NCBI GenBank assembly: GCA_016214555.1
Contig: JACROF010000012.1
Span: forward strand, 70,066 to 134,065
From: Candidatus Levyibacteriota bacterium
Lineage (GTDB): Bacteria; Patescibacteriota; Microgenomatia; Levybacterales; UBA12049
DNA: 64,000 nucleotides
Direction of reading: 5' to 3'
Position numbers and translations under genes: made by a program. Position 1 is the stretch's first letter, and each line of letters begins with the position of its first letter. Below, piece by piece: positions 18,169-39,877 of the stretch. Under the pieces are notes generated by a model. The model made no database searches and was not told the origin of the DNA. It worked only from the letters and a program-made list of their open reading frames with translations.

Positions 18169-18540
18169 TTATAAAATAAGCTGAATTGTCTTAAAGACAA
18201 AGATTGTAGTAAGGGTTGACATAAGGAGCGATGACAGGTTAAGCATTCGACCAAGCATCGCAGATCGTTCATAGATAACATGAGTCAATACAATATTTGT
18301 TATTAGATAAATAAAGCTGAATCCTACTGGAATAAGAATTCCAATTTTTGTTACCAATCTTTCTGTTCCCCATGGGAGCTGGTTGAAGATTGGTATAACA
18401 GGAGGAAGGAGTGAGTAGGTAAAGACAATAAACAAGATACTAAGAAATAAAAAAACCGTAGACAGAATTATAGACCACCAAATAGCTTTGTCTAATGAAA
18501 GTTTTTTAATGTAAGTTTTCATAAATATCAGCATTTCCAA
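18169..18540 (-). CDS. small polytopic membrane protein, unknown function
   Basis: 123 aa, 3 predicted TM helices, within the glycosyltransferase cluster. No recognisable motif. Confidence 0.4.
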   Translation of the reverse strand: MEMLIFMKTYIKKLSLDKAIWWSIILSTVFLFLSILFIVFTYSLLPPVIPIFNQLPWGTERLVTKIGILIPVGFSFIYLITNIVLTHVIYERSAMLGRMLNLSSLLMSTLTTIFVFKTIQLIL

Positions 18541-21477: not shown

Positions 21478-21481
21478 ATTG

Positions 21482-22288
21482 TTAGGAAAGTTTATTAAAT
21501 ATAGTATAGACGTTTTGGGTTGTTTGTTCCACAATGCGATCATAAGAAACTTCTTTAACCCCGCTTAGGAATTTTCCTATTAAAATTACATATTCAGGGA
21601 GATTTCTTTCTCCTCTATGGGGAATAGGGGTTAAGTAGGGGCTGTCTGTCTCGACTACTATCCGGTCAAGAGGGGTAAGTTTTGCCAATTCTTTCAGTTC
21701 AACTGTTTCTTTTGGAGCTAACCCTGGATAAGTGATATTTCCGTCAAAACCTATAAAAAAACCAAGATTTAGTGCTTCTTTAAGCACTTCTTTTGTACCT
21801 GCGAAACAATGAAACATTCCTGGTACGGTTTGTAAAAGATGTTTTTTTTCTTTTAGTATCATTAGTATGTCCTCTCCTGCTAGACGATTATGAATTTGAA
21901 GAGGGAGTTTGAGCTTGTGTGCTAGCTCAATTTGAGTAATAAAAACTTCCTTTTGTATTTTTGGATCAACTATCCCGTTTGATTTATAGCTAAAATAATC
22001 AAGTCCTATTTCTCCAATGCCTATTACTTTACTTTGCTTTGCAATCATTTCAAGGTCATCAATCCAGTTATTGCCGAGTTCAATTTTATCGGCATGGTGA
22101 GGATGAATGCCAACAATTGCAAAAAGTTCAGAGTATTGTTTTGCAAGATCAACGGCCAGCTTACTTGAGTCGAGCTTTGTTCCTGTGTTGATAATTCTTG
22201 TTACGCCTTTTTCTAATGCACTTTTAATGACAGCGTCATAATCAGACGAAAAAGAATGAAAATTTAGATGACAGTGAACATCGATCAT
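21482..22288 (-). CDS. tatD: TatD-family metal-dependent deoxyribonuclease
   Basis: 268 aa. MIDVHCHLNF N-terminus and conserved His/Glu/Asp positions of the TatD TIM-barrel hydrolase. Confidence 0.85.
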   Translation of the reverse strand: MIDVHCHLNFHSFSSDYDAVIKSALEKGVTRIINTGTKLDSSKLAVDLAKQYSELFAIVGIHPHHADKIELGNNWIDDLEMIAKQSKVIGIGEIGLDYFSYKSNGIVDPKIQKEVFITQIELAHKLKLPLQIHNRLAGEDILMILKEKKHLLQTVPGMFHCFAGTKEVLKEALNLGFFIGFDGNITYPGLAPKETVELKELAKLTPLDRIVVETDSPYLTPIPHRGERNLPEYVILIGKFLSGVKEVSYDRIVEQTTQNVYTIFNKLS

Positions 22289-23756: not shown

Positions 23757-24143
23757 CTATACGGACTTACTGGTGAAAAATAGTTCAAGAGTTAAGAGAA
23801 TGCCAACAAGAAGAATAATAAAGAGTGGATGAGTAAGGTGGAGTACACGAAACAAAAGATAGCAAAGAAGAAAAAGAGCAAAAAATATGCCATGCTTTTT
23901 GCTCTTTAGAAAATATGTTGGAAGAGAATAGCCAGCGATAAGAAGTGGAAGAGGCACTATCCAAAGTGCAGGAATTGAAAAAAAGAAAAAAGTAATCTTG
24001 TCATAAGGCGAGATGGTTATCAGAAAGAAAATGAGCAGGAGAAGAAAGATAATTCCAACAATGAGGTAAAAAATATTTCTTTTTCTCCTTCTCATAGTTG
24101 AAGCATAGAGCTTTTTTCTTACCCACGCAACGCCTCTTGACAA
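23757..24143 (-). CDS. small membrane protein, unknown function
   Basis: 128 aa, 3-4 hydrophobic helices, divergent from hrcA. No motif. Confidence 0.4.
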   Translation of the reverse strand: MSRGVAWVRKKLYASTMRRRKRNIFYLIVGIIFLLLLIFFLITISPYDKITFFFFSIPALWIVPLPLLIAGYSLPTYFLKSKKHGIFFALFLLCYLLFRVLHLTHPLFIILLVGILLTLELFFTSKSV

Positions 24144-24165
24144 AAAATAGCACTCTTGGTATTAT
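24136..24165 (+). promoter_or_regulatory. sigma70-type promoter of hrcA operon (TTGACA -18- TATTAT)
   Basis: ttgaca at 24136-24141 and tattat at 24160-24165. The -10 lies inside the CIRCE spacer, the classic arrangement for HrcA-repressed promoters. Confidence 0.45.
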
Positions 24166-24173
24166 AGTGCTAA
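24147..24173. promoter_or_regulatory. CIRCE inverted-repeat operator (HrcA binding site)
   Basis: aTAGCACTC-ttggtatta-TAGTGCTAA versus consensus TTAGCACTC-N9-GAGTGCTAA: 9-bp arms, 9-nt spacer, one mismatch per arm. Located 10 nt upstream of hrcA. Confidence 0.65.
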
Positions 24174-24182
24174 TTCAAGATT

Positions 24183-24917
24183 ATGCATAACTTGACTCAG
24201 AGACAGATTGAGATTCTCAAAGCAATTATTGAGGATTATATCGAGACAGCAGAGCCAGTTGGTTCTGAGACCCTTGAAAAGAAATACAGCCTAAGTGCTT
24301 CTCCTGCAACGATTCGAAACGAGATGGTTAGACTTTCTGAATTTGGATATCTCAAAAAACCGCATTCGTCAGCAGGACGTGTCCCAACGCCTGAAGGAAT
24401 GAAGTTTTATGTCTCACAGCTCATGAGAGAGAAAGTGCTTTCGACAGTTGAGGAGGTAGCTCTAAAGGAGAAGGTTTGGGACTATCGCGAGAGAATGCAG
24501 CGTTTCCTTAAGGAAGCAACACGATCTCTTGCTGACAAAACAGGTGCTTTAGCTGTGGCAACTTCCCAAGATGGCGATGTCTTTATTTCGGGATATTCAA
24601 ATATTTTGGAGATGCCTGAATTTTTTGACATTGACATTACGAAGACTCTTCTTTCAGCTATTGATGAGTCAGAATATTTATTTAACCTTTGTCAGAAAAT
24701 GACCCAGGAAGGTGATGAGATCAATATACTGATGGGAGAGGATTTAGGTTCACGACTTCAGGGCCCTTATAGTTTTGTTTATACTCATTATGAGACTCCT
24801 ATGCATGGCGCAGGAGAGATTGGAGTAATTGGGCCGGTTCGCTTGAATTATACAGTCGTTGTGCCTACAGTGAGGTATTTTGGAGATCTTATTGAATCAA
24901 TTGCAAAAGGTTGGTAA
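24183..24917 (+). CDS. hrcA: heat-inducible transcription repressor HrcA (short form)
   Basis: 244 aa. N-terminal winged-helix with ILKAIIEDYIETAEPVGSETL...SPATIRNEM, typical of HrcA. CIRCE element upstream. Confidence 0.85.
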   Translation: MHNLTQRQIEILKAIIEDYIETAEPVGSETLEKKYSLSASPATIRNEMVRLSEFGYLKKPHSSAGRVPTPEGMKFYVSQLMREKVLSTVEEVALKEKVWDYRERMQRFLKEATRSLADKTGALAVATSQDGDVFISGYSNILEMPEFFDIDITKTLLSAIDESEYLFNLCQKMTQEGDEINILMGEDLGSRLQGPYSFVYTHYETPMHGAGEIGVIGPVRLNYTVVVPTVRYFGDLIESIAKGW

Positions 24918-24922
24918 AAATT

Positions 24923-25402
24923 ATGTCAGATGGAAAAAGAAATAAGAAACAAGAACAGACAGTTGTAGACAAGTCAGAAGAAGTTGAAGTGATTGAAGGT
25001 CATGCCTTAGAGTGGGAGAATAAGTACAAAAGAGTGCTTGCTGACTATCAGAACCTTGAAAAAAGAGTACGAGATGAAAGATTGGAATTAGTACGATCTT
25101 CAAATAAGGAATTGCTCTTGAAATTTTTGCCTATTTTAGATACAGTATTATTAGCAAAGCAGCACGAGCAAAATCAAAATCTTACAATTATTGAGGATCA
25201 GTTCTTTAGTATTCTCAAACTGGAAGGAGTGATAAAAATTGCTACGGTCGGAGAGCATTTCGACCCCTCAACAATGGAAGTTGTTACATTAACGCAGGGA
25301 CAAGAAGGAATTGTTATACAGGAGGTACGCCCAGGCTATCTGCTATATGATAAATTGCTGCGTCCAGCACAAGTTATAGTAGGCAACGAGGACAAAAAAT
25401 AA
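24923..25402 (+). CDS. grpE: nucleotide exchange factor GrpE
   Basis: Coiled-coil N-terminal region then a C-terminal beta domain. Sits between hrcA and dnaK. ATG at 24923 preferred over the TTG at 24911. Confidence 0.85.
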   Translation: MSDGKRNKKQEQTVVDKSEEVEVIEGHALEWENKYKRVLADYQNLEKRVRDERLELVRSSNKELLLKFLPILDTVLLAKQHEQNQNLTIIEDQFFSILKLEGVIKIATVGEHFDPSTMEVVTLTQGQEGIVIQEVRPGYLLYDKLLRPAQVIVGNEDKK

Positions 25403-25484
25403 AAGTTTAAAGTGTAAAGATAAAAATTAAGATGTATGTTTTTAACTTTTCATTTTTAACTTTTTCTGAGATAGAAAGGAATAT

Positions 25485-27386
25485 ATGGGAAAAATAATTG
25501 GAATTGATTTAGGTACAACAAATTCATGCGTAGCGGTTATGGAAGGTGGCTCACCAAAGGTGATCCATTCTGCGGAAGGCCGCAATGTCATCCCTTCTGT
25601 TGTTGATCCCAAAGCACATGTTGTTGGTGATATCGCAAAGCGTCAAATGGTTTTGAAGCCAAAAGAAACAATTTTTTCTGTCAAGAGATTGATGGGAAAG
25701 AAGTTCAAAGACTCCTCTGTTGCAAATGATATGAAATGGCTTCCATATGCCGTAAAAGCCGGAAGAGATGATATGGCTGTTGTTGAAGTCGATGGTAAAT
25801 CTTATACTCCGCAGGAGATTTCAGCAATGATTTTACAGAAAATAAAATCAGATGCAGAAGCATACCTTGGAGATAAGGTAACTGAGGCAGTTATTACTGT
25901 ACCTGCTTATTTTGACGATAGTCAGCGCCAGGCTACAAAGCAGGCAGGAGAGATTGCTGGTCTTGAGGTAAAACGCATTATCAACGAGCCAACAGCAGCA
26001 GCGCTCGCATATGGATTAGATAAGAAAAATGCACATACTATTGCGGTCTACGATCTAGGTGGAGGAACATTTGATATTTCTATTTTGGAGCTTGGGGATG
26101 GTGTCTATGAGGTAAAATCAACTAATGGAGACACTCATCTTGGAGGAGATGATTTTGATCAGGTAATTATTACTTATTTGGCCGAGGAATTCAAAAAAGA
26201 AAATGCTATCGATTTGAAAAAAGACCCCCAGGCACTTCAGAGATTGAAGGAATCAGCCGAAAAAGCAAAAATAGAACTTTCATCTGCTCAGGAGGCGCAG
26301 ATCAATCAGCCATTTATCACTCAAGGACCAAATGGCCCTCTTCATTTGACGATGACTCTTACAAGAGCAAAGCTTGAGCAGCTCGTCGATGATCTTGTTC
26401 AAAAGACGCTTAAACCCGTTGAGCAGGCAATTAAAGATGCGGGTATAAAAAAGAATGAAGTTGACGAGGTTGTTATGGTTGGTGGAATGACTCGCATGCC
26501 GAAAATTGTCGAAACAGTCTCAAAATTCTTTGAAAAAGAACCAAATAAATCAGTAAATCCTGATGAAGTAGTAGCAATTGGTGCTGCTGTACAGGGAGGC
26601 GTTCTTTCAGGAGATGTTAAGGATGTGCTCCTTCTTGATGTAACTCCTTTGACGCTTGGCATTGAGACAATGGGCTCAGTTTCAACCCCTCTTATAGCAA
26701 GAAATACCACCATTCCTACATCAAAATCTCAAGTATTTTCAACCGCTGCAGATAATCAGACACAGGTAGAGATTAACGTTTTGCAAGGAGAGCGACCTAT
26801 GGCCGCAGACAATAAGTCACTTGGTCGATTTATTCTGGATGGTATTCCTCCAGCTCCTCGTGGTATGCCACAAGTTGAGGTAACATTTGATATTGATGCA
26901 AATGGCATTTTGAATGTCAAAGCTAAAGATAAAGCTACTGGAAAAGAGCAAAGTATTAAGATTACCGGTTCAACTGGGCTTTCAAAAGAGGAAGTTGAGA
27001 GAATGACTAAAGAGGCTGAGCTTCATGCTAAAGAGGATGAAGAGAAGAAAGCGCAGGTTGAAACAAGAAATCAGGCAGACTCTCTTATTTTTACCGCCGA
27101 AAAATCTCTCAAGGATGCAGGGGATAAAGTAAGCGATGATATTAAAAAAGAAGTAGAAGAAAAGATAAAAGCACTTAAAGACATCTTGGATAGTGGATCA
27201 AAGGAGGAACTTGAGACAAAGACTAAAGAGCTTTCAGATCATCTTCAAAAAATTGGTGAAGCTATGTATAAGGATCAAGTTGCATCCACTGAAGCAAATT
27301 CACCAGTGGCAAGCTCAGAGGAGAAGAAAGATGCAAAGGATAGTAATGAGCCTGTTGAAGGTGAGGTAGTCGATGGCCGAAACTAA
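25485..27386 (+). CDS. dnaK: molecular chaperone DnaK (Hsp70)
   Basis: 633 aa. [22 protein letters not shown] and VGGMTRMP Hsp70 signatures. Acidic C-terminal tail. Confidence 0.95.
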
Positions 27387-27810
27387 ACCAGAATTTGTCC
27401 AAGCTCCCTTTCGTATTGTTGAACCTCCCTCAATTGAGGATCCACTCCCTACTGCTGTTCCACCATCTGCTGATATTTTAGCGGGTAGGGTTTTTAGTTC
27501 AGAAGATCAGGCACGATTGACAGAGTTAGAAGAAAAAGTTGAAAGATTATCAAATCAAGGTCAGCCAACAATTGATATTCAGAACGAGATTGCTAGAATA
27601 CGTGGTATAGAGATGCCTTCCATAAAAAGAAAAGAGGGGCCGTTTTTAGAGGATATTATGTCCAGAGAACAAATCGAAGAAAATTTGAGAAATAACCTTC
27701 CTGCTAGTTTTAGCCCACCCCATATAAGAACTGGTCAAGAGGCTAGAGGAGATAGGAGTCCGACATGGAGAGGTCCAAGGCAAAGAGCTGTTTCAAAAAG
27801 AACAAAGTAA
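27373..27810 (+). CDS. hypothetical protein encoded between dnaK and dnaJ (likely disordered, Pro/Arg/Glu-rich)
   Basis: 145 aa ORF filling a 440-nt dnaK-dnaJ gap and overlapping the dnaK stop by 14 nt. No recognisable domain. Compositionally biased. Confidence 0.4.
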
Positions 27811-27826
27811 TATTGCATGAATTACT

Positions 27827-28705
27827 ATGGCACAAGATTATTATTCATTATTAGGAGTTTCTAAATCTTCAAGTGCAGATGAGATTAAAAAAGCCTATCG
27901 TAAATTAGCGCTTCAGTACCACCCCGATCGTAATAAGACTAAAGAGGGGGAGGAAAAATTTAAGGAAATAACCAAAGCCTACGAAGTCCTTTCAGACCCG
28001 CAAAAAAGACAGACCTACGATCAGTACGGATCAGCAGCTTTTGAACAGGGAGGGCCAGGGGCAGGAGGCCCGTTTGGTGGAGGTTTTGGTGGATTTAATC
28101 AGCAAGGTCCTTTTAGTTATACATATTCCAGCAATGGTCAAGGATTTGATTTTGGGGGATTCTCAGATCCATTTGAAATATTTGAACAATTTTTTGGTGG
28201 TGCATCGCCTTTTGGAAGAGGAGAAAGAAGGCAGGTTTATTCTTTGTCGATTAGCTTTATGGAGGCTGTGAAGGGCGCTGAGAAAGAAGTAGAGATAGAC
28301 AAGAAAAAACAAAAAATAAAGATTCCTCCAGGTGTTGATACGGGAACAAGAATGAGGTTTGAAGGTTTTGATATTGTATTTGAAGTAAAGCAAGATAAAA
28401 GATTTCATCGTGAAGGCTCAGATATTATCACTGAGGAAACAATATCTTTTCCTCAAGCAGTTCTTGGTAGCGAGATAAAGGTTGAAACAGTTGAAGGAGA
28501 GGTTACCATCAAGATTCCAGCGGGAACACAGCCTGAGACATTGATACGACTTCGAGAAAAAGGAATCCAAAGACTCCGAAGTTCAAGCAAGGGTGATCAT
28601 TATGTGCGAATTAAGATAGATATCCCTAAAAACATTTCAAAAAAGCAGAGAGAAATTCTTGAGGCTTTTGATTCGGATTCGCAAAATAAAAAGAACTGGT
28701 TTTAG
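27827..28705 (+). CDS. dnaJ: DnaJ-like co-chaperone, type II (J domain + G/F-rich region + C-terminal substrate-binding domains, no zinc finger)
   Basis: 292 aa. J domain with HPD ([13 protein letters not shown]). Gly/Phe-rich linker. No CxxCxGxG repeats. C-terminal DnaJ_C-like region. Confidence 0.8.
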
Positions 28706-28796: not shown

Positions 28797-29180
28797 ATGA
28801 AAATTGTCTCTGCTCGACAATGGATTCAAAAATTATCTTATTCGTTATTTTTTGTGGATGTTGCGTATGCTGCCGATCCAGCTTCCTCTTGTGATTCTTC
28901 AGCTGTTATGACACAGCTTGGGTGTCTACCGAAAGATCCTGTACTCTTTGTTAGTAGTTTTTATGGTATTGGACTGAGTATGGTTGGTGGAGTAGCTCTT
29001 CTCTTTATCATTATTGGAGGTTACACAATTCTTACTTCTCGAGGGAATCCAAGTCAAATTAACGCAGGAAAAAGTTATATTTTTTACTCGATTGCTGGCC
29101 TTATTCTTGCAATATTTGGCTATCTCTTTATAGAGATATTTTTGGTTGATCTTCTTCATATACCTGGTCTTGGACACTAA
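28797..29180 (+). CDS. small secreted two-TM protein, VirB2/TrbC pilin-like (hypothesis)
   Basis: 127 aa. Signal peptide ending AYA-ADP. Mature ~100 aa with two hydrophobic helices separated by a short polar loop (TSRGNPSQINAGKS). Size and topology resemble TrbC/VirB2 T-pilin subunits. Stop is 2 nt before the next gene. Confidence 0.5.
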   Translation: MKIVSARQWIQKLSYSLFFVDVAYAADPASSCDSSAVMTQLGCLPKDPVLFVSSFYGIGLSMVGGVALLFIIIGGYTILTSRGNPSQINAGKSYIFYSIAGLILAIFGYLFIEIFLVDLLHIPGLGH

Positions 29181-29181
29181 A

Positions 29182-32100
29182 ATGAAAAAATATTTTTTGT
29201 TCTGCCTTCTTTTTATCGTAGGACTTTTTTTATTTACCACCTCTCAGCAAGCGTATGCTGTTTCGATAGATAGCAAAACTCTTATTGCGGCAGATGCATT
29301 ACCCCAGGATGGATCGTGGATTATTGATCCTGAGGTGACTAGAATCGGCAAAAACGCATCACGATCAGGGCAGTTATTGGATTGGACACTCAAGGATTAC
29401 CAATGGTCAACTGCAGCATCGCAGCAAAGTAGCGATAATCCTCTTGCATCATTTTGGATCATTATTCAGAGAATTGTTTATGCCTTGTTTTTAGTTGTAA
29501 TTCTTATAACGTCATTTATTCTCATTGTAACTAGAGGGAAAAGTCTGTCTGCTAAAAGATTTCTTCCGAGGTTTTTACTCGCAGTAATTCTTGTGACTTT
29601 TTCTTTTTCACTTATTCAATTTATTTATCAATTTGTTGATATTTTACAAGGATTTTTTCTTAACAATTCTCGTGGGCAAATTATTTCATCAAAAGATCTT
29701 TTATTTATAGGCTTTCAGTACACAGACTTTGAAGGACTTCGTCGATTCGGTTCGTCATTTGACGAGTCTGCATTTATGTCGTTGATCCTTGTTAAATTTA
29801 CTGCATTTACTTATTATGTTATGGCTCTTCTCCTTATTTTTAGAAAGATTCTTCTTTGGTTTTTTATAGTTCTCTCTCCCCTTTTCCCAATACTGCTCTT
29901 GTTCTATCCAATGAGGAATACGGGAAAGGTTTGGATCGGTGAGTTTTTTAGATGGGTACTTTACGCACCTCTTTTTGCTATTTTCTTATCGGGCCTTGTA
30001 AGATTGTGGGATTCTCCTTCAGGACTTCCTCTCCTTTTTAATTTTACTGGAGTAAAGCAGGGGGATATGGTATATCCGACTGCGGTAAATATTTTACTTG
30101 GTGGACCTGGGCAAAAAATCGGATTGAACAATAGCGTTAATCTTCCTGATACATTTGCACTTTATGTAGTGTCTCTTATCATGTTGTGGGCAGTTATTAT
30201 TCTGCCATTTATTCTTCTCCAGATTTTTTTAGATCACATGATGGCGTATAATTATCAAAATAATCCTATAACAAAACAAATTACTAATCTTATGGCTTCA
30301 AGGCTTGCGCCGCCCTCAAAGCCACTTGGTCCTCCTCCATCTTCTAATCAACCAGCAGGTCTTGCAAGAAATATTCCCTTTGGTAGGCATTTTGAGGTTC
30401 CATCGTCTGTTGGTGATGCTAAGGAGATTCCAAGAAGTTTTGCACAGCAAAATAAGTCTCAGACAGTAGTGAAGAAAAATGTTGTTACAAAATCCGTAGT
30501 GAATAATCTAGCCAATCTTTCAATTCCAACGATGAGGGATATTGCCAGATATGAAATAGAGAAAAGATCTCATGACACTTCTCGAATTGCAGAAATTGAA
30601 AGAACGAAAAAAACTCTTATTCAGATAGCAAGTCCGACAACTCTTTCTATTTCTAGTGAGCGAGAAAGATATCAGGCTATCAGGGAAAGGTTAAGACTTG
30701 CTTCTCAGAAAGGTGATACTGTTGCCACAAATATACTCCAGGCTGCAAATACATATAATTACTATTCTTCGCAAGACACTTCTTCGACCACGATTAATCA
30801 AGGAGTTAAAAATCTTGCTAATCCAGAGAGAATCCTTTCTACAGTGGAAAAAGAAAAAGTCGAAAAAATAAAAGAGAGAATTATTCAGAATGCTCTTGAG
30901 GGTAACCCTATTGCTAAACAAGTTGCTGCAGGCCTAAGTCAGTTCTCCTCAAGCCAACTTGCAGTTCTCAAACAAATACTTCAGGCATTATCGTCATCAG
31001 CTCTAAATCAGAACTCTTCTAATCAATATGAGTCGCTTCGCGAGCGTCTCGTAACCGCAAGCAATTCTGGGAATACAGTTGCAACTACGTTTATTTCTAC
31101 AATTGAAAAGTCATCTTCTGAGCAAGATGTTAAGAGTTTATTTGAGGCGTTAATTAAAGCTGAAAAAGAAGGAAATCCAATAGCAAAAGAGGTTATGAGC
31201 TCTGTTGATAAAAATGTCTCACAGGTATCCACAGAGAATTTAAAGCAGGTGATTAAAGAAGCTAAAGATAAAAAAGATCCATTAGGGGTAATGATTTTTG
31301 AGATGATGCAAGAATCATCAGTCAAAGAACAAAAAGTTCCCGCCTCAGCGGCAACGAAATTAAAAAGCGGCACTTTTCCTGTTGTTAATAGGATTCAAGA
31401 AGTATCTTTTGATGATTACGAAGCTGTGAAGAAAATGTGGAGGGAAAATTATAAAAATTTGAAGTCTGCTGGATTTAATGGTGATAGTAGAAGAGATGAG
31501 ATCAATAATGATATTTCACATATGCAAGAAACGATTAGCTTACTTTCTTCAGGGAATCAAGAGATGATCGAACAAGGAATGAGACAGGTATCTGATATTC
31601 TGCCATTTCTATTAATTGGAGGATTCTCTCAGACTGAAATTATTACCTATCTTAAGGCAAAATTGGAGGCTGCAAAGTCTACACTTGAAGACTTAACAGC
31701 GAAAGACGATGAAGAAGACACGCTTCTTGCTGCTGAAAAAGCTGTTAAGCACACCTCAAAAACTATGACGATGAGTGCTGAGGCGCCTATTTCTGCAAAG
31801 CAGGTTATTCCTCAAGAGGTTTCAACGGGGTCTGTGCATACGACTCTACTGTCTCCTCCTTTGGCTAGTGGGGCAACATCAATTTTTAATATAGTCAACC
31901 TCCCAATAGTTACCTTGCGAGATATTGTAAGAATTGACCAGAAAAGAGAGACAACAACAGACCAGAAGAGTGAAATCACTATTCTTAAGCAAAATCTTCT
32001 CAATATTGGACATCCTGAGAGGGTAACTTCAGTAGACGAGCGTGAAAAATATAAAACATTGCACACTCAGCTGGTTGAGGAGGATAAGAAAGGAAATCCT

Positions 32101-33150
32101 TCAGCAAAGATTATTATCAATGCAATTAGTGAGCTTGACAACCAAACGTCTGATAGCGAAATTGATAACGCAAATAAGTTTATTTCACTTCTTGGGCAGC
32201 AAATGATTCCAGGTGATAAAAATGAGGATAGGGAAAATGAGATTTCACAATTGATTTTGAGAGAAAGTGCTTCAAATCCTCTAGCTGAATCTCTTCGTGT
32301 GGCTTCACAGCAGTGGTATAACCTTCAGAAAGAAAAAACTAAAGATTTTCTTGAGAAAATTAGCAATCCTTCTCTCCTACCAACAGCCGCTGAGCAGATG
32401 CAGTATACGAAGCTAATGGATAGGATTTCTTTGGCAAGCTCAAACGGAAACAGCGTTGCATCATATGTAGTTAAAGCAATCCGTGAAAAAGATATAGATC
32501 ACGAAATACCTCAAATATATGTAAAAATTGCTGAAGGAGAAAGGAATGGAGATGAGCTTTCAACATATCTCATGAGAACTATCTATAACACAGCCTCACA
32601 TGATACTAAGATAGACGCTGAGTCTATTTTCCAAAAGACAGTATCACAGGGGAGAGATGGCGATCTCTTTGCTTCAAAACTCTTAAAAGAGATTGCAAAA
32701 ATCGCCAAACAATTAGGTAAAAAGACAACGCCTGTCACCTCTTTGCCTCATGCAAATCGAATACAGACTGTTACTCTTGATGATTATGAAGAGGTAAAAA
32801 GAATGTGGGAGGAGAATTATGCATCATTTCTTCTAGATTCTTCAAAATCTTCTGATGAGAAAAAGAGAATAATAGAAAAGGATGTTAATTCATTAACTCT
32901 AGCCATAAACTTGCTTTCATCAACTGATTCTGAGCAGATGAGAAGAGGAATGGATATGGTAAGCGATTTGTTGCCTTTTCTTCTCTTGGGAGGATTTAGT
33001 CAGCCTGAAATTATCGGGTATCTAAAGGCAAAACGTACTGCTGCAGAGTCTGTTTTTAAAAGTGAAAATAGCTTGAATGAGGAATTGGTTAGTAGAAATA
33101 AAAGACAGGAAAATCCAATACAACAGAAAGTTCAAGTCGTCGATGAATGA
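29182..33150 (+). CDS. giant (1322 aa) secreted polytopic membrane protein: N-terminal VirB6/TrbL-like multi-TM domain plus long modular repeat-containing hydrophilic C-terminal region
   Basis: ATG at 29182 (the track's 29146 is TTG). Signal peptide MKKYFLFCLLFIVGLFLFTTSQQAYA, then ~6 TM helices within the first ~370 aa. About 950 aa of hydrophilic sequence follow, with several repeated module types (see repeat features). Confidence 0.8.
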   Translation: MKKYFLFCLLFIVGLFLFTTSQQAYAVSIDSKTLIAADALPQDGSWIIDPEVTRIGKNASRSGQLLDWTLKDYQWSTAASQQSSDNPLASFWIIIQRIVYALFLVVILITSFILIVTRGKSLSAKRFLPRFLLAVILVTFSFSLIQFIYQFVDILQGFFLNNSRGQIISSKDLLFIGFQYTDFEGLRRFGSSFDESAFMSLILVKFTAFTYYVMALLLIFRKILLWFFIVLSPLFPILLLFYPMRNTGKVWIGEFFRWVLYAPLFAIFLSGLVRLWDSPSGLPLLFNFTGVKQGDMVYPTAVNILLGGPGQKIGLNNSVNLPDTFALYVVSLIMLWAVIILPFILLQIFLDHMMAYNYQNNPITKQITNLMASRLAPPSKPLGPPPSSNQPAGLARNIPFGRHFEVPSSVGDAKEIPRSFAQQNKSQTVVKKNVVTKSVVNNLANLSIPTMRDIARYEIEKRSHDTSRIAEIERTKKTLIQIASPTTLSISSERERYQAIRERLRLASQKGDTVATNILQAANTYNYYSSQDTSSTTINQGVKNLANPERILSTVEKEKVEKIKERIIQNALEGNPIAKQVAAGLSQFSSSQLAVLKQILQALSSSALNQNSSNQYESLRERLVTASNSGNTVATTFISTIEKSSSEQDVKSLFEALIKAEKEGNPIAKEVMSSVDKNVSQVSTENLKQVIKEAKDKKDPLGVMIFEMMQESSVKEQKVPASAATKLKSGTFPVVNRIQEVSFDDYEAVKKMWRENYKNLKSAGFNGDSRRDEINNDISHMQETISLLSSGNQEMIEQGMRQVSDILPFLLIGGFSQTEIITYLKAKLEAAKSTLEDLTAKDDEEDTLLAAEKAVKHTSKTMTMSAEAPISAKQVIPQEVSTGSVHTTLLSPPLASGATSIFNIVNLPIVTLRDIVRIDQKRETTTDQKSEITILKQNLLNIGHPERVTSVDEREKYKTLHTQLVEEDKKGNPSAKIIINAISELDNQTSDSEIDNANKFISLLGQQMIPGDKNEDRENEISQLILRESASNPLAESLRVASQQWYNLQKEKTKDFLEKISNPSLLPTAAEQMQYTKLMDRISLASSNGNSVASYVVKAIREKDIDHEIPQIYVKIAEGERNGDELSTYLMRTIYNTASHDTKIDAESIFQKTVSQGRDGDLFASKLLKEIAKIAKQLGKKTTPVTSLPHANRIQTVTLDDYEEVKRMWEENYASFLLDSSKSSDEKKRIIEKDVNSLTLAINLLSSTDSEQMRRGMDMVSDLLPFLLLGGFSQPEIIGYLKAKRTAAESVFKSENSLNEELVSRNKRQENPIQQKVQVVDE
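31381..31695 (+). repeat. intragenic ~105-aa repeat module copy A (RIQEVSFDDYEAVKKMW...LPFLLIGGFSQTEIITYLKAKLEAAKS)
   Basis: Protein-level duplication within the 1322-aa ORF. Copy A is ~40-45% identical to copy B, including DDYE.VK.MW.ENY, LPFLL.GGFSQ.EII.YLKAK and AA.S. Nucleotide level is diverged. Confidence 0.6.
32745..33070 (+). repeat. intragenic ~105-aa repeat module copy B (RIQTVTLDDYEEVKRMW...LPFLLLGGFSQPEIIGYLKAKRTAAES)
   Basis: Paralogous to copy A at 31381-31695. Conserved hydrophobic patch LPFLLxGGFSQ and basic YLKAK motif. Confidence 0.6.
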
Positions 33151-33193: not shown

Positions 33194-35866
33194 ATGCTTG
33201 GAAATTTATTTAGTTCTCATAAAGATCCTAAAGAGGAGTTGGTCTCGCCTCAAGAGCAAAATCCAGCAGATACAAGTACTGCTGCTAATACATTGACACA
33301 CATAGAGTCACGAATGGATCCAACGCTTAGGCAAAATGTCTCAGCGCTATCCCATCTTGATTCTCGTACTACGCAAGTTCTTCATCACGCTCAAGAAGAG
33401 ACAAGGCGCATTAAGCAAGCTCAAATACAGCCTGAACAAGTATTGCTAGGACTACTATACGATGAGGAAGTTTTTAAGCTACTTGAAGGTTTTGATGTTG
33501 ATGTTGCAAAGCTTGCCCAGGAAATTCAGAGTAAAGAAGAAGTAGGAAGTTTCCAAGAGCAGCCGATGTTGAGTAGCGCAAGTACTCAGCTATTTGAGCA
33601 GGCATATAGAGACGCAAAAACCAGAAACGCCAGCTTTGTTTCACCAGAGGATCTTTTGGTTGAGATTTGCAATTTATCTATTGATTCCGTAAAGCTCCTA
33701 GTGGAAAAGGGAGTTACTAAACAACATATTTTGGACAAATTATCGTCGTCTACAGAATACACCACGGGTAAAAAATCAGTTCTTGAACAATTCGCCATAG
33801 ATCTCACTGCTGAAGCAAAAGCAGGGAAATTGGATCCAATCGCAGGAAGAGATAGGGAAATTGACAGACTTGTTCACATTTTACTTCGAAGGACAAAAAA
33901 CAACCCAATAATTATTGGTGAAGCTGGAGTCGGTAAAACAGCGATTGTTGAAGGACTTGCACAGGAAATTGTTGCAGGAAGTATACCATCTGACCTTAAA
34001 AACAAAAAAATTTATCAGCTTGATCTTGCATCGCTTGTAGCTGGCGCTAGCCATAGAGGAGAGTTTGAGGAGCGACTAAAAGGGATAATCAATGAAACAA
34101 TTGCGTCACAAGGTCAAATAATCCTTTTTATTGATGAAATACATACCCTCATTGGGGCAGGTGACACTGACGGCGCTTTGGATGCTTCAAACATAATAAA
34201 GCCCCATTTAGCAAGAGGTCATATGCAGATTATTGGAACAACTACCACAGTTGAGTATAGAAAGCATTTTGAGAAAGATAAGGCTTTCGAGCGACGTTTT
34301 CAACCAATCCTTGCTGATGAACCATCTGAAGAGGCTGCTGTTGAAATGCTGAAAGTGTTAAGGCCAAAATATGAGAAATATCATGGTGTGACAATCCCTG
34401 ATGATACTTTGGTAGATGCCGTTAAGTTATCAAAAAAATATATTGGAGAAAGATATCTTCCTGATAAAGCAGTTGATCTTATCGATGAAGCTTCAGCAGA
34501 TGTAAAGCTTGGACGAATTTCTTTTAAGCAGGATGTAAAGGAATCGGGAGAAAACTCAAATGACACACCGCCTCGTTCACAGGCAACAACGGGTAATGAG
34601 GTGGTAAAGTCAGATATTGAGAGAGTTGTGAGCAATTGGACTGGTATTCCAGTTACAAAATTGACTGAAGACGAGAGTCAGAAGCTTCTTAAGCTTGAGG
34701 ATAATATTCATAAAAGACTTATCGACCAGCAAGAAGCAGTCGTTGCGGTATCTGAGGCTGTACGGAGAGGGAGAATTGGGTTAGCTCCGGCAAATAGGCC
34801 AATTGCATCATTTATATTTCTCGGTCCAACAGGCGTTGGCAAAACAGAATTAGCAAAAACGCTTGCCGAGTTACTTTTTGGGCGTGATGATGCTCTTGTG
34901 AGGCTTGATATGAGTGAATATATGGAAAAGCATGAGGTAGCTAAGTTGATTGGGGCTCCTCCAGGATACGTTGGTTATGAAGAAGGAGGTCAGTTGACAG
35001 AGGCGGTTCGGGCAAAGCCATACTCAATAGTTCTACTTGATGAGGTAGAAAAAGCACATCCTGATGTTTTTAATATTCTTTTACAGCTTTTGGAAGATGG
35101 TCGATTAACAGACAATAAAGGTAATACTATTTCGTTCAAAAATACTATTGTTATAGCTACCTCCAATATTGGAAGTTCGCTTATTCAGCAACAGCTTAGT
35201 GAAAAAGGAGAGCCACAATCGCAGGAAGCTTTTACTAAAGAGTTTAGTGATTTGACAACGCTTGTAACAGCAGAGTTAAGAAAGTTTTTTAAGCCAGAAC
35301 TTCTTAACCGATTTGATGACGTGGTGATGTTTAAGCCTTTGAGAAAAGCAGATATGACGCAGATTGCAAAGCTTGGTATCGGAAAAACAGCAAAATTGCT
35401 TGAAGAGCAGGGGTATCATGTTCAGACAACGGATGCTGCGATTGCGCAGCTTGCGCAGGAAGGATACGATCCTGTATATGGAGCAAGGCCGCTTAGAAGG
35501 CTTATCCAGTCATCTATCGAAAATCGAGTAGCTCTTATGATCATAGGGAAGGAATTTATGCCTGGAGATACTATTGTGATTGATTATAACTCGACAAAAG
35601 GAGGTTTTAATTTCTCAAAAGGCGGTGGTCAGAGTGTAGTTGGTCCAGAAAAAAACATCGATAATCGAGACAATAATACTCAACCTCTTGATATGGTTGA
35701 AAAATCTCATCTTCCTGAGTCAGGAACAGGGGAAGCTCAGGCGTTACCTAAGGAGCCTGAGTACGCGCAGCCCAGCTTCAATCCTCCATTCTTGAGTAAT
35801 CAAAATAACAACGTCAATGGTGAGACTTTTGTAAAGAACGAAATCACTTCTGCCTCAAGCAATTAA
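33194..35866 (+). CDS. Hsp100/Clp-family double-AAA+ ATPase (ClpC/ClpA-like architecture, no ClpB M-domain, no recognisable ClpP-docking IGF/IGL loop), Q/N-rich C-terminal tail
   Basis: 890 aa. Two Clp_N repeats. NBD1 Walker A GEAGVGKT and Walker B ILFIDEIH. Only ~45 aa between NBD1 and NBD2. NBD2 Walker A GPTGVGKT, Walker [11 protein letters not shown], sensor ATSNIG and GARPLRR. No G-F/G-L tripeptide after the sensor-1 region. Confidence 0.85.
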
Positions 35867-35937: not shown

Positions 35938-36267
35938 ATGTCTGCCCTGTTTTTCTACCCATTTTACGTATTGAGATTTTGGTATGGTGAAGGTCCTGTT
36001 GTTGTACTCAAGCATTTCTATATTTTTAATCGTGTATTTCTTGATTTTTTTTCTGTAAAAATTCTTCTAAAAACCTTTTTTCTTCCTGTAAAAAATGAAT
36101 ATCGCGATGGTTTGGTCGGATTTTCCATTGGAATTGGGATTTTTATGAAAAGCTGTTTACTTATCATTGCAGCATTTTTATTTATGATACTTCTTGTTTT
36201 TGAAGTGGTGATTTTTGGAGGATATATGGCATTTCCTTTGATTACAGTAGGATTGTTGTTGTGGTAA
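35938..36267 (+). CDS. small polytopic membrane protein, unknown function
   Basis: 109 aa, 3 hydrophobic helices. Stop overlaps the start of the following membrane-anchored Clp-like gene, suggesting translational coupling. Confidence 0.4.
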   Translation: MSALFFYPFYVLRFWYGEGPVVVLKHFYIFNRVFLDFFSVKILLKTFFLPVKNEYRDGLVGFSIGIGIFMKSCLLIIAAFLFMILLVFEVVIFGGYMAFPLITVGLLLW

Positions 36268-36269
36268 TT

Positions 36270-38669
36270 ATGGATAGACAACTCGTATCAATATATTTGT
36301 TTTATAGAAGTATAGAAGTAAAATTTATAAGAGTTGCTCTTCCAGTGATTCTTCTGATGTGGATTCCCCTTGTGCTTATTACTAACGAATCCCCTAATGT
36401 TCCCATTGTTATTTTTAATCTTTATCTTATGGGAGAACTTTTTTATCGGTATAAGATTTGTACATTAAGAACAAAAAATACCCTTCTGGATCAGGAAGAT
36501 CCTTATAAGAGTATGTCTTTAGAGGTAGCTTCAGTATTTCAAAATGCTTCATCAACAAAGGAAATATTAAGACGCTTGTTTAGTCATCAACAGGTCATTT
36601 TTGGGTTACAAAGAATGGGTGCTTCTCCGCGAGATGTAGTGAGTATTGAATACGAAGCCAACGTGTTGCTGCTAAGAGCGTCTGAGCTCGCTAAAAAAAT
36701 ACAGGGAACAAAGATTACTCTTATAGATGTGCTCAATTCTTATCTGATTGTCTCAGATGAGAAGACAAATTTCCTTTTACATAAGCGATTAAAAGAGAAT
36801 GACTTGCTGCAGATTTCTGTCTGGGTTAGGAAGATCTATCAATTTGAGGAAAAACCAAGGGAGCTATTTTTTGCAAATTACGGAGGAGGATTGGGGCAAT
36901 GGCTTGTGTCTGGGTGGACCTTGGAAACTAAAAAGTATACACAAGTTTTTCCTCAGAAGGATCTTAATCTTGATGTTTCTATTATTGGCAGAGAAAAAGA
37001 ATATCAGTTATTACAAGAAAGCTTATTAAAACCTGAAAGAAATAATATTCTAATTGTTGGAAAAACAGGGGTAGGCAAAGAGCAGCTGCTTAGAAGGCTG
37101 GCAGAGGATAGTTTTAGTGGAAAACTTGATAAGAATCTTTCATATAAAACAATTCTTGAAGTACTCGTTGGATCACTTGTCGCTGGAGCAAATCAACAAG
37201 GCGATCTTCAGGAGCGTTTAAAAGAAATCATTGAGGAGGTTAGCCATGCAGGCAATGTTATTCTTTATATTCCTGAATTCCAGAACCTTCTTGGCGGGAC
37301 CAGCTTTTCACTTGATCTTTCTGGGGCATTAATGCCATTCCTTCGTGATGGAAAGCTTCCGATTATCGCAAGTGTCACTGACGAAAATTTTAAAAGATAT
37401 ATACAAGGTAAACCTATCTCTGAAATGTTTTCTGATATTCATCTTACGGCTCCCAGTAGTAATCAGGCTGAGCAGATGATAATGGAAAAGATCGTGGAGC
37501 TTGAAAGAAAACATGCAGTAATAATTACTTATCCTGCTGTCAAGACATCGGTGATGTTTGCACAAAAATATTCTGATAGTTCTGAGTTACCAGGAAGTGC
37601 AATTGATCTACTGTCTGATGCAATGAGTAAAAAAGCTTCTGAAGATATTCATGATGCACATAATAAGTTTCGTTTAGTTACTGAGAAAGATATTATTCAT
37701 ACAGTTGAACAGCGAACAAGTATTGCGTTGGATGATCCAACAGAAGAAGAGAGTTCAAGGCTACTTCATCTAGAATCTATTATGCATGAGCGGATCATAG
37801 GTCAAGATCAGGCTATTAAAGCTATTGCAGAATCTCTTCGAAGACTCAGAACAGGGGTTCAGAGTCTAGATAGACCTACCTCCTTTTTGTTCCTGGGCCC
37901 AACAGGTGTTGGTAAAACTGAAGTAGCAAAAGTATTATCAAATATTTATTTTAATGGTGAAGCGAATATGATCCGTCTTGACATGAGCGAGTATGCATCA
38001 ACCGATGGTATTGAGAGATTAATAGGAGCATCTACCAGACAAAACGATCTGAGAGGTGAGTTGACTGAGAAAATCCATGATCATCCAAATTCCCTTGTCC
38101 TTCTTGACGAATTTGAGAAAGCTCATTCGTCGGTGGCAAATCTCTTCCTTCAGATTCTTGATGATGGTAGATTGACCGATGGGAGAGGTAATACTGTTTC
38201 TTTCAGTAACGCGATTATTATCGCAACATCGAATGCTGGAGCAAATTTTATTCACGATGCGATAGAAAAAAATGTATTTCTTGATAGCTCGTTTCAGAAG
38301 CAATTGAGAAGCTTTCTTCAGGCAAATAATATATTCAAGCCAGAATTACTCAACCGCTTTGATGATATTGTTGTTTTTCGGCCACTCTTAAAGGATGATG
38401 TTAGGAAAGTAACAGAAATTTTGTTAAGAGATCTTATAAGTCACATGAAAGAAAAAGACATAACACTCTCCGTTGAGGATATTGCAGTGTCTAAAATAAT
38501 ATCAGAAGGTTATGATAAAGAATATGGAGCAAGACCAATTCGGAGATATATCCAAGACAATCTTGATGATCTTATTGCGAAAGAAATCCTTAATAAATCA
38601 ATTAATAGAGGAGATAGGGTAAGAATTGGCGTCAATCAAATAAATGAGTTTGTTATTTATCGAATTTAG
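36270..38669 (+). CDS. membrane-anchored Hsp100/Clp-like ATPase with degenerate (catalytically dead) first AAA+ domain and intact second AAA+ domain
   Basis: ATG at 36270 (GTG at 36261 in the track). Two N-terminal TM helices, then a Clp_N-like repeat pair. NBD1 Walker A reads VGKTGVGKEQL (canonical T/S replaced by E), Walker B reads ILYIPEF (D replaced by P), and the Arg finger is lost. NBD2 is canonical ([36 protein letters not shown]). Confidence 0.8.
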   Translation: MDRQLVSIYLFYRSIEVKFIRVALPVILLMWIPLVLITNESPNVPIVIFNLYLMGELFYRYKICTLRTKNTLLDQEDPYKSMSLEVASVFQNASSTKEILRRLFSHQQVIFGLQRMGASPRDVVSIEYEANVLLLRASELAKKIQGTKITLIDVLNSYLIVSDEKTNFLLHKRLKENDLLQISVWVRKIYQFEEKPRELFFANYGGGLGQWLVSGWTLETKKYTQVFPQKDLNLDVSIIGREKEYQLLQESLLKPERNNILIVGKTGVGKEQLLRRLAEDSFSGKLDKNLSYKTILEVLVGSLVAGANQQGDLQERLKEIIEEVSHAGNVILYIPEFQNLLGGTSFSLDLSGALMPFLRDGKLPIIASVTDENFKRYIQGKPISEMFSDIHLTAPSSNQAEQMIMEKIVELERKHAVIITYPAVKTSVMFAQKYSDSSELPGSAIDLLSDAMSKKASEDIHDAHNKFRLVTEKDIIHTVEQRTSIALDDPTEEESSRLLHLESIMHERIIGQDQAIKAIAESLRRLRTGVQSLDRPTSFLFLGPTGVGKTEVAKVLSNIYFNGEANMIRLDMSEYASTDGIERLIGASTRQNDLRGELTEKIHDHPNSLVLLDEFEKAHSSVANLFLQILDDGRLTDGRGNTVSFSNAIIIATSNAGANFIHDAIEKNVFLDSSFQKQLRSFLQANNIFKPELLNRFDDIVVFRPLLKDDVRKVTEILLRDLISHMKEKDITLSVEDIAVSKIISEGYDKEYGARPIRRYIQDNLDDLIAKEILNKSINRGDRVRIGVNQINEFVIYRI

Positions 38670-38722: not shown

Positions 38723-39877
38723 ATGAAAAAGAGAGCATACAAAAGGAAGCATGTTGTTTTAAAGACAAAACGACATAAAAAATTTCACCATAAAGTTATA
38801 TCTTTTTTTAGGGGAGATGGCGGAATTTATGTAATTTTTATTCTTGCTACCGCAATGGCTGGAGCATTTGCCTTAACAGGTGGTATTCTTCCTCAGCTTA
38901 ATCCTACTCCACCTGCATCAAGCCAAGTTGATATAGATACCGAGTCAGCAAAGCAAAGCAGCGAGAATGCTTTGCAGCTTGTTGACATAAAGCCAAAACC
39001 GACCGAGGTGCCTACGCCTACCAGTGAAATTACTCCCAGTACCTCGCCTAGTATCTCTCCTAGCATCTCGCAGCCTCCTCCTGTTCAGGAATGTTATAAC
39101 AAGACGTTAGTGACTTTGATACTTGATTATTCAAATTCAATGCTAACACCAAATTCAAGTCCAAAATATACTGCTTTAAATTCTGCGCTTGGATCTTTCT
39201 ATACACAATTGAGTGGTTATGCTAATGCTGGCATCGGAGCTCAAGCATTTACTGGAAAAGATTCTGGGAATACACCGCTAGATGGTGTATTTAACCTGTT
39301 GAATTACAAATTAGTAAAGAATGTTTCATCTTCAGATAAGCAAAAAATTACTCAAGTAGATAAAGCTGTTTTAGAAAATAGTAATGGTGGAGGAACCTAC
39401 ATGAGAAATGGGTTTTCCTATACTATTTCCAAATTAGAATCAGCTCCCTCTTCTTTTGCAGGATATAGAAAAGTTGCCATAATTTTTTCTGATGGTATTC
39501 CTGAGGAGACATGGGAAGATAGAGAATCCCACAACGGGGATGCAAATTCTTCTTCAGTTTGCTTAGGGAGTGGTAGATATCAGCAGAGATGTTTTTCAAT
39601 TTATCAAGACCCACGAGTAAATTCAACAAACAGATTACCTGATCTAGTAAAGGGACTAAAAGATATAACAGATAGTGTATACGTCGTTGGTATTTATGAT
39701 AGCAAAAGTGGTGAAGGGCTAGTTTTTAAAGATAATTTGATTAGCCTGTTACAGACGATTGCAGAGAGGAGCACGACCCCATTCTATCAATTTATAGACT
39801 TAAAAGATGATCCAGCGGCGGCATTGCAAAAATTAAATCCAGCTTTTCAAAATATTTTTAAAGACGTTTGTAAGTAA
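38723..39877 (+). CDS. membrane-anchored von Willebrand factor type A (vWA) domain protein with MIDAS motif
   Basis: 384 aa. Highly basic N-terminus (KKRAYKRKHVVLKTKRHKK), one TM helix, a P/S/T-rich linker, then a vWA domain with LILDYSNSM (DxSxS MIDAS) and later AIIFSDGIPEE. Confidence 0.7.
   Translation: MKKRAYKRKHVVLKTKRHKKFHHKVISFFRGDGGIYVIFILATAMAGAFALTGGILPQLNPTPPASSQVDIDTESAKQSSENALQLVDIKPKPTEVPTPTSEITPSTSPSISPSISQPPPVQECYNKTLVTLILDYSNSMLTPNSSPKYTALNSALGSFYTQLSGYANAGIGAQAFTGKDSGNTPLDGVFNLLNYKLVKNVSSSDKQKITQVDKAVLENSNGGGTYMRNGFSYTISKLESAPSSFAGYRKVAIIFSDGIPEETWEDRESHNGDANSSSVCLGSGRYQQRCFSIYQDPRVNSTNRLPDLVKGLKDITDSVYVVGIYDSKSGEGLVFKDNLISLLQTIAERSTTPFYQFIDLKDDPAAALQKLNPAFQNIFKDVCK

Follow-up and report, generated by a model that had tools for sequence, protein, structure and literature searches.

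What is a membrane protein of 1322 amino acids doing among the chaperone genes of a Candidatus Levyibacteriota bacterium? The question is raised by a stretch of 64,000 nucleotides (contig JACROF010000012.1, positions 70,066 to 134,065), here called the window, to which the positions below refer; features are on the forward strand unless marked otherwise. The best explanation is that the gene encodes the VirB6 subunit of a Patescibacteria-type type IV secretion system (T4SS) in Levybacteria, a group of ultra-small bacteria, and that the protein is co-produced with a VirB2-like pilin of its own. This identification is considered quite probable; the judgement does not extend to the side of the membrane on which the long C-terminal tail lies, which is weighed separately.

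The open reading frame (ORF) at 29146-33150 is a single intact frame, and from the ATG at 29182 it encodes 1322 amino acids with the N-terminus MKKYFLFCLLF (29182-33150). The product is 100% identical to 'hypothetical protein HZC02_03695' at NCBI, from a metagenome-assembled genome (MAG) of a Candidatus Levybacteria bacterium (Microgenomatia), and translation and homologues characterise it as an extended VirB6-family protein. It begins with a Sec-type signal peptide, MKKYFLFCLLFIVGLFLFTTSQQAYA (residues 1-27, 29182-29262), recognised by the hydropathy of residues 1-24 and an AYA cleavage site near residue 27. Hydropathy also gives six hydrophobic segments at residues 92-118, 130-152, 198-220, 223-243, 255-275 and 325-350, approximately. 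A helical hairpin of the transmembrane (TM) segments TM1 and TM2, joined by a short cytoplasmic turn rich in K/R, is predicted from modelled helices and loop charge (residues 87-159, 29440-29658), and the remainder of the VirB6-like core has four more hydrophobic helices (residues 160-355, 29659-30246). The core is followed by a proline-rich linker modelled with low confidence (residues 356-441, 30247-30504), where the AlphaFold2 confidence score pLDDT is below 50 from residue 376. The C-terminal part, about 930 residues, is hydrophilic by hydropathy, with no hydrophobic segment beyond the core. Its first module (residues 442-848, 30505-31725) contains helical hairpin repeats and then an end-domain (730-848, 31369-31725), and its second module (residues 849-1305, 31726-33096) contains a Ser/Thr-rich linker, helical hairpins and another end-domain (1185-1305, 32734-33096). 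A signal peptide with about six N-proximal TM helices, and a long hydrophilic C-terminal part with internal repeats, had both been claimed in an earlier note on this DNA, and both were recovered here.

The same note had named a chimeric assembly as one of the findings that would overturn its interpretation. An artefact of this kind, either a chimera or two genes fused by a sequencing error, is conceivable in this type of data, as one family member (P0086) carries a chimeric high-GC tail with a 'Condensation domain'. For the gene studied here the probability is negligible. It is not an assembly chimera, because full-length homologues of the same architecture recur on many independent contigs. 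More than 500 homologues were found in total, and the combination of N-domain and modules is present in hundreds of independent assemblies, including complete chromosomes of about 1.1 Mb and a full-length orthologue (P0002) with 66% identity across 99% of the length. The composition is also uniform along the gene from 29182 to 33150.

The identity of the N-domain is the first step towards an answer. A search with this domain gave 1,197 cluster representatives at E<=1e-3, 235 of them at E<=1e-30, with lengths from 390 to 2790 amino acids. Two homologues, P0010 and P0020, have 50% and 44% identity respectively to the 1322-aa protein overall and about 70% within the N-domain, and with 27.8 and 27.1 bits they exceed the gathering score of 25.9 for PF04610 (TrbL/VirB6), their residues 111-275, approximately, being aligned to profile positions 5-176 of 215. 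TrbL was matched by nine of 45 divergent members (E<=0.01) and by several further members. Judged from such comparisons, the protein belongs to the TrbL/VirB6 family transitively, through clear homologues that pass PF04610. The AlphaFold2 model (pLDDT 65.6, pTM 0.59) has helices at residues 87-116 and 122-159, and the top three Foldseek matches were all chains of TrwI, the VirB6 of R388, with a best probability of 0.85 and with E-values of 0.4 or higher, which are not significant. Residues 1-355 show the VirB6 fold, and the Pfam threshold for TrbL/VirB6 is reached by members of their family. The most conserved motif of the family, YPxRNTxKIWIGEFFRW, lies within core residues 160-355. A polytopic protein is predicted, with the N-terminus on the extracytoplasmic side and, near it, a TM hairpin whose turn has a loop charge of +3.1. 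Some relatives have CARDB or cohesin-like domains inserted between the signal peptide and the core, and the N-terminus should therefore be outside the cell; these fusions tell nothing about the side of the tail. The VirB6/TrbL-like N-domain of the earlier note is thus upheld by homologues and by the ranking of TrwI, and not by a direct Pfam scan, which gave no match. The proposed kinship with extended VirB6 proteins also holds, as the protein fits the recognised 'extended-VirB6' class, defined by at least five hydrophobic helices and a large hydrophilic central or C-proximal domain (PMC12857230).

The second step is the gene immediately upstream, at 28797-29180. It encodes a putative VirB2-like T4SS pilin, assigned from PF18895, orthologues and synteny; the protein has 127 amino acids, a signal peptide and two hydrophobic helices. 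The protein itself matches PF18895 (T4SS_pilin) with E 2e-5 and 25.0 bits, below the cut-off of 26.6, and has a weak NCBIfam match to the Mbov_0395 pilin-like protein; PF18895 is matched by 36 of 38 orthologues (E<=0.01), at best with 2.1e-7. The upstream gene thus probably belongs to the T4SS_pilin family. Its stop codon ends 1 nt ahead of the VirB6-like ATG, and the two genes are translationally coupled. The two genes hardly ever lie apart in relatives: the pilin gene directly precedes the VirB6-like gene in 76 of 80 loci, with a gap of mostly 1-12 nt. These loci are from species-level genomes retrieved with the N-domain, and where their names are informative they are all Levybacteria, Levyibacteriota or Patescibacteria. 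Many MAG records from the candidate phyla radiation (CPR) carry the placeholder or mislabelled title 'uncultured Gammaproteobacteria bacterium' (L005-L084). The coupled pilin gene, which the earlier note did not mention, is the strongest contextual argument for a role in a T4SS. In R388, helix alpha1 of VirB6 recruits VirB2 (PMC9259494, PMC11294453), and a coupled pilin-VirB6 pair is therefore what would be expected of a pilus-assembly unit. By analogy, the TM1-TM2 hairpin may correspond to alpha1/alpha2 of TrwI, the site of VirB2 recruitment in R388.

Several results weigh against the identification. The 1322-aa protein has no Pfam or NCBIfam match, even when the N-domain and the tail are searched separately, and PF04610 is matched neither by the full length nor by residues 1-393, even at E<=10. 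A profile of 17 N-domain sequences found no VirB6 among PDB sequences and gave a single chance match with E 0.3. No Pfam VirB4 or VirD4 domain was found among the window ORFs of at least 100 amino acids, nor were VirB4 or VirD4 found within 10 kb on either side in the 80 related loci; the sequence surveyed from this genome is 64 kb. In favour of the identification is a link to a virB4 cluster in one CPR genome (L090), where a cluster beside dnaN/dnaA consists of a pilin array, proteins of 574, 482, 685 and 364 aa, a TraC-like protein, a VirB4 ATPase and a protein of 1019 aa. The 482-aa protein is matched by the hidden Markov model (HMM) of the family N-domain over the TM1-TM2 hairpin with 31 bits, a match that spans only about 75 hydrophobic residues and whose E-value of 2.8e-11 refers to a database of five sequences.

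When PrgJ, PcfC and PrgH of pCF10 and a CPR TraC-like protein were used as tblastn queries there was no match in the window or in the 80 loci, and the family HMM gave only an insignificant local match to PrgH. The gene is not encoded together with VirB4 or a set of T4SS genes here, and a VirB2-like pilin is adjacent all the same.

It might be argued from this separation that the pair has become detached from type IV secretion and forms a VirB4-independent structure of the envelope, such as a surface fibre, an anchor or a membrane-stress device, within a heat-shock regulon. The lack of VirB4 and VirD4 nearby in 80 genomes, the embedding in a cluster under HrcA-type control signals (described below) and a tail without T4SS-related similarity would all agree with such a structure. 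A system of VirB2 and VirB6 that works without VirB4 is not known, and the most conserved part of the protein is the very hairpin that recruits the pilin in R388. Moreover, distant members of the family adjoin genes for TraC-like proteins and for proteins resembling type IV coupling proteins (T4CP): a two-module member of 883 aa with 30% N-domain identity lies next to a TraC-like protein, with ClpB, a T4SS pilin and a T4CP-like protein nearby. VirB4 was found in 2,417 of 3,035 Patescibacteria assemblies and is located near dnaA in Microgenomatia, and both Levybacteria assemblies in the extract of Table S1 are marked 'Yes' for VirB4 (PMC12102498). In the same survey (Quinonero-Coronel 2025) VirB2-like pilins are widespread in Patescibacteria, 304 of 480 detected VirB6 homologues are near virB4, and in Microgenomatia such homologues are called 'scarce', a finding described as 'suggesting extreme sequence divergence' (PMC12102498). 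Since VirB4 is near-universal in Patescibacteria and VirB6 scarce in Microgenomatia, the simplest reading is that the protein is the VirB6 of that system. A detached pair is accordingly regarded as improbable, and the protein probably supplies the 'missing' VirB6 of the Levybacteria T4SS.

The TraC-like proteins deserve a remark of their own. That VirB4 is split in CPR is implied by L090, where the TraC-like gene stands directly before the gene for a VirB4 ATPase of 624 aa; the TraC-like family appears to be the N-terminal part of the split protein. The stand-alone TraC-like protein (PF26593) is about 230 amino acids long, and it has over 940 homologues in CPR. In a less closely related lineage (L089, 7279-10729 and 13441-15789; L087, 2014-9684) the neighbours of an extended VirB6 are such a stand-alone TraC-like protein, a T4CP-like protein of 782 aa, ClpB and a tyrosine integrase. 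The neighbourhoods of two short family members (P0233 and P0227) were uninformative.

The third step is the setting of the pair. Upstream of it are hrcA, grpE, dnaK, an ORF of 145 aa and dnaJ (24183-28705), assigned by Pfam HrcA, GrpE, HSP70 and DnaJ/DnaJ_C and by an order conserved in relatives. Downstream are clpB (33194-35866), a polytopic membrane protein of 109 aa (35938-36267) and a second, divergent ClpB-like AAA+ protein (36261-38669), assigned by Pfam, NCBIfam and synteny. The gene order is hrcA-grpE-dnaK-(145 aa)-dnaJ-pilin-extended virB6-clpB-(109-aa membrane protein)-clpB-like, with nusA-infB further on. The arrangement is kept in about 70 of the 80 genomes; dnaJ is located downstream in some, and the pair is still between dnaK and clpB. 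ClpB stays adjacent even in distant family members. The chromosomal position flanked by chaperone genes and without VirB4 or VirD4, which the earlier note had pointed out, is therefore real in the window and conserved among relatives.

Directly upstream of hrcA, at 24137-24173, a sigma-70-like promoter (TTGACA-17-TATTAT) overlaps an operator of the type known as CIRCE (controlling inverted repeat of chaperone expression), ATAGCACTC-N9-TAGTGCTAA. The promoter has a score of 11 out of 12 and a TG extension and is the best of the region, and the CIRCE pattern search gave one match with two mismatches compared with none expected in 100 shuffles. The spacer between dnaJ and the pilin gene has just a weak promoter-like site and a weak hairpin. 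From its sequence, the promoter/CIRCE site is likely to be the control point of the cluster that holds the pilin/VirB6 pair. Because promoter and operator overlap ahead of hrcA, HrcA may control all genes of the same-strand cluster, among them the pair, and a place in this dnaK-clpB cluster probably gives the pair strong or stress-linked expression.

Some small genes of the cluster have features of their own. The hydrophilic 145-aa ORF (27373-27810) fills the spacer between dnaK and dnaJ, overlaps the 3' end of dnaK by 14 nt and has no Pfam match; no gene is called in the equivalent gap of one related locus (L001), and the ORF may therefore be restricted to its lineage or spurious. The gene for the 109-aa membrane protein overlaps the start of the ClpB-like gene by 7 nt. 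The ClpB-like AAA+ protein has 802 amino acids and is far below the ClpB equivalog cut-offs, with a poorly recognised first AAA module. Since these two genes recur as a pair downstream of clpB in most related loci, they suggest a membrane-associated Hsp100 paralogue. A very hydrophobic ORF of 128 aa (23757-24143, reverse strand) lies between metG and hrcA, a position kept in many related loci, and has no family match; in another locus (L002) it is replaced at the metG-hrcA position by a gene for a Cys-rich T4SS_pilin-like protein of 221 aa.

The tail consists of all-alpha modules of a new kind, arranged in tandem, with two copies here and one to five in relatives. Residues 442-835 and 903-1292 are a tandem duplication with 30% identity (E 1e-38), each copy closed by a conserved end-domain of about 120 amino acids, and six short hairpin units of the form helix-G(N/D)-helix are detectable across the modules. 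The end-domain has the motif NRIQxVxLxDYExVKxMWxENY ... LLSS ... ILPFLLxGGFSxxExxxYLKAK. It is present in 1-5 copies in 218 of 243 sampled family members, and the variable copy number therefore gives rise to a range of protein lengths. In 79 loci no end-domain was found outside the VirB6-like ORFs. Conservation between orthologues is highest in the N-domain (56-88%), lower in the end-domains (48-79%) and lowest in the hairpin regions (24-66%), and the distal module diverges most. The tail has no relative in Pfam, NCBIfam or PDB. Matches to HU, winged helix-turn-helix and sigma-70 region 4 domains in the tails of some relatives had offered a lead towards a DNA-binding, cytoplasmic tail; they were partial matches of 20-35 residues to the hairpins, none passed alone, and the lead was abandoned. 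The 'Condensation domain' of P0086 was also set aside, being of the non-ribosomal peptide synthetase type and situated on the end of a chimeric high-GC contig.

On which side of the membrane this tail lies is the least certain part of the answer. The earlier note had described it as extracytoplasmic, a claim that nothing demonstrates: loop charges favour the inside, whereas hydrophobicity and the R388 structure favour the outside. By the Hessa scale, membrane insertion is clearly favourable for four segments and marginal for two, TM5 having a median of only +2.2 kcal/mol. Either four or six segments would then be inserted, and an even number in both cases counts for a tail outside. In the R388 machine VirB6 crosses the membrane by alpha1/alpha2 only, and its other hydrophobic helices form a periplasmic dome (PMC9259494). 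The proline-rich and Ser/Thr-rich linkers, the variable copy number and the fast-evolving distal part also point outwards.

Other observations speak for the opposite side. Averaged over the family (221 members), the charges are -2.2 for the N-terminal extension and +3.1, -2.4, +2, +2.0, -0.7 and +2.9 for loops L1 to L6, which favours a topology of five TM helices with the N-terminus outside and the C-terminus inside. This is the topology of Agrobacterium VirB6 as determined with reporter fusions. In addition, no adhesin, wall-binding or other extracellular domain can be recognised in the tail. Cysteine depletion was considered as a marker of export, as only 27 of the 164,942 residues in the tail family are Cys (0.016%). 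The Cys content in these loci and genomes is 1.26% in proteins with a signal peptide, 0.38% in cytoplasmic proteins and 0.12% in large cytoplasmic proteins; because Cys is more frequent here in proteins with a signal peptide than in those of the cytoplasm, the argument fails, cannot discriminate inside from outside and was not used. On balance, a tail outside the cell is favoured with modest confidence, and a cytoplasmic tail is a serious contender that falls short of being expected.

A cytoplasmic tail would suggest another function for the same VirB6-plus-pilin pair. It could be a docking platform for substrates, for the VirB4 ATPase or for DnaK, DnaJ, ClpB or the ClpB-like protein, and partly replace a coupling protein, VirD4 being often absent from this type of system. 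The scarcity of Cys in the tail has its parallel in the large cytoplasmic proteins of these loci. The positive-inside loop charges across the 221 members and the marginal hydrophobicity of TM5 fit a cytoplasmic platform, as do the position between dnaK/dnaJ and clpB in about 70 genomes, with ClpB adjacent even in distant members, and a precedent in the Saccharibacteria system, in which Wang et al. found no recognisable coupling protein (PMC10633639). The helices of R388 VirB6 past alpha2 are, however, periplasmic (PMC9259494), one to five copies with a rapidly diverging distal region would be unusual for a site where ATPases or chaperones dock, and the tail has no known chaperone- or NTPase-binding motif. 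A conserved gene order in small, streamlined genomes is also weak evidence of physical interaction. This alternative is thought unlikely, though not so unlikely that it should be neglected. A bolder version, in which the entire operon from hrcA to the clpB-like gene is one functional unit and the cytoplasmic tail couples Hsp70/Hsp100 unfoldases to a type IV channel without a coupling protein, has little probability. If true, it would be a chaperone-powered and heat-shock-regulated secretion or pilus system, undescribed in any bacterium.

With the identification as VirB6 and a tail outside the cell, the following mechanism can be proposed. The subunit would serve as membrane platform and translocon and, by analogy with R388, might assemble as an oligomer (a pentamer in R388). 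The first helical hairpin would be situated in the membrane and recruit pilin subunits, and the other hydrophobic helices could form the base for growth of the pilus or channel, again if R388 is a guide. VirB4 and other components would be encoded elsewhere in the genome; in Microgenomatia the literature puts them near dnaA. The tail would most likely cross the cell wall towards the outside and form a stalk or contact structure of variable length, which is the weakest step, and might there substitute for the VirB5 and VirB8-10 parts, which are lacking in monoderm systems.

Other genes in the window are also of note. Two adjacent large membrane proteins are encoded at 18506-21543 on the reverse strand, one with PMT/PMT_2 (protein O-mannosyltransferase-like) and the other without a match; they could glycosylate Ser/Thr-rich surface linkers, for example in the VirB6 tail if it is exported. 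At 38723-39877, downstream of the clpB-like gene in several loci, there is a protein of 384 aa whose N-terminus is basic and which has a single TM helix and a linker rich in Ser, Thr and Pro; as its L001 orthologue carries VWA_2 it is probably a surface protein. A 769-aa, Cys-free protein at 55191-58227 (reverse strand) has a Baseplate_J-like domain (E 3.5e-9) and no other match, and the gene after it, which overlaps it, encodes a sortase; a domain like that of a phage baseplate beside a sortase is odd for a core region in CPR.

Among the envelope machines of cultivated Patescibacteria, the T4SS is the one whose necessity for epibiotic life has been demonstrated, and in Southlakia epibionticum both the system and its pilins are required for epibiotic growth (PMC10633639). 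The locus provides a concrete VirB6 candidate for at least Levybacteria, one that is divergent, located away from virB4, equipped with its own pilin and extended by a variable repeat module. The profile allows hundreds of 'hypothetical proteins' to be re-annotated, and the pair of pilin and platform is a testable target for structural modelling. The link between genes for a pilus or secretion system and the HrcA/CIRCE heat-shock cluster is an unexpected regulatory one, and the tail is a new, tractable case for the question of what the extensions of extended VirB6 proteins do.

Compared with TrwI/VirB6 of R388 (PDB 7O3V, 8RT9), the Levybacteria protein has about 12% identity. TrwI, with 342 amino acids, lacks the cleavable signal peptide, the extracellular N-segment of 60 residues and the tail of 930 residues. 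The Levybacteria host is moreover monoderm, the gene is outside a virB operon, and the window yielded no VirB5 partner. Examples of extended VirB6 proteins are TraG of the F plasmid, RvhB6 of Rickettsiales and TcpH/ConG; the C-domain of TraG is periplasmic and that of TcpH cytoplasmic. This class includes MPF-FA homologues of 700-900 aa, and its extensions have no known function (PMC12857230). A VirB6-like polytopic N-domain followed by a large hydrophilic C-proximal region is common to the class and to the Levybacteria protein (PMC12857230). In contrast to the class, the Levybacteria tail consists of a tandem all-alpha module in 1-5 copies, and TraG_N and other extended-VirB6 Pfam families are unmatched. 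The gene also differs in being chromosomal, part of a chaperone operon and paired with a pilin. To our knowledge, Gram-positive systems normally have no pilin.

A third comparison is with the T4SS of Patescibacteria as known from Saccharibacteria (SEML1_0006-0019; Wang 2023). The phylum is the same, PF18895 VirB2-like pilins occur in a monoderm in both, and the dnaA-proximal VirB6-like protein of L090 is detectably related over the TM hairpin. The VirB6-like gene of Levybacteria differs in its great distance from any VirB4, in the giant modular tail that it encodes and in its fixed place between dnaK/dnaJ and clpB. In the literature on T4SS or TrbL in Levybacteria and Microgenomates no published description of the locus was found. 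It encodes the likely VirB6 of Levybacteria, relocated from the virB4 cluster, with a novel modular tail, a pilin as its neighbour and a heat-shock cluster as its setting.

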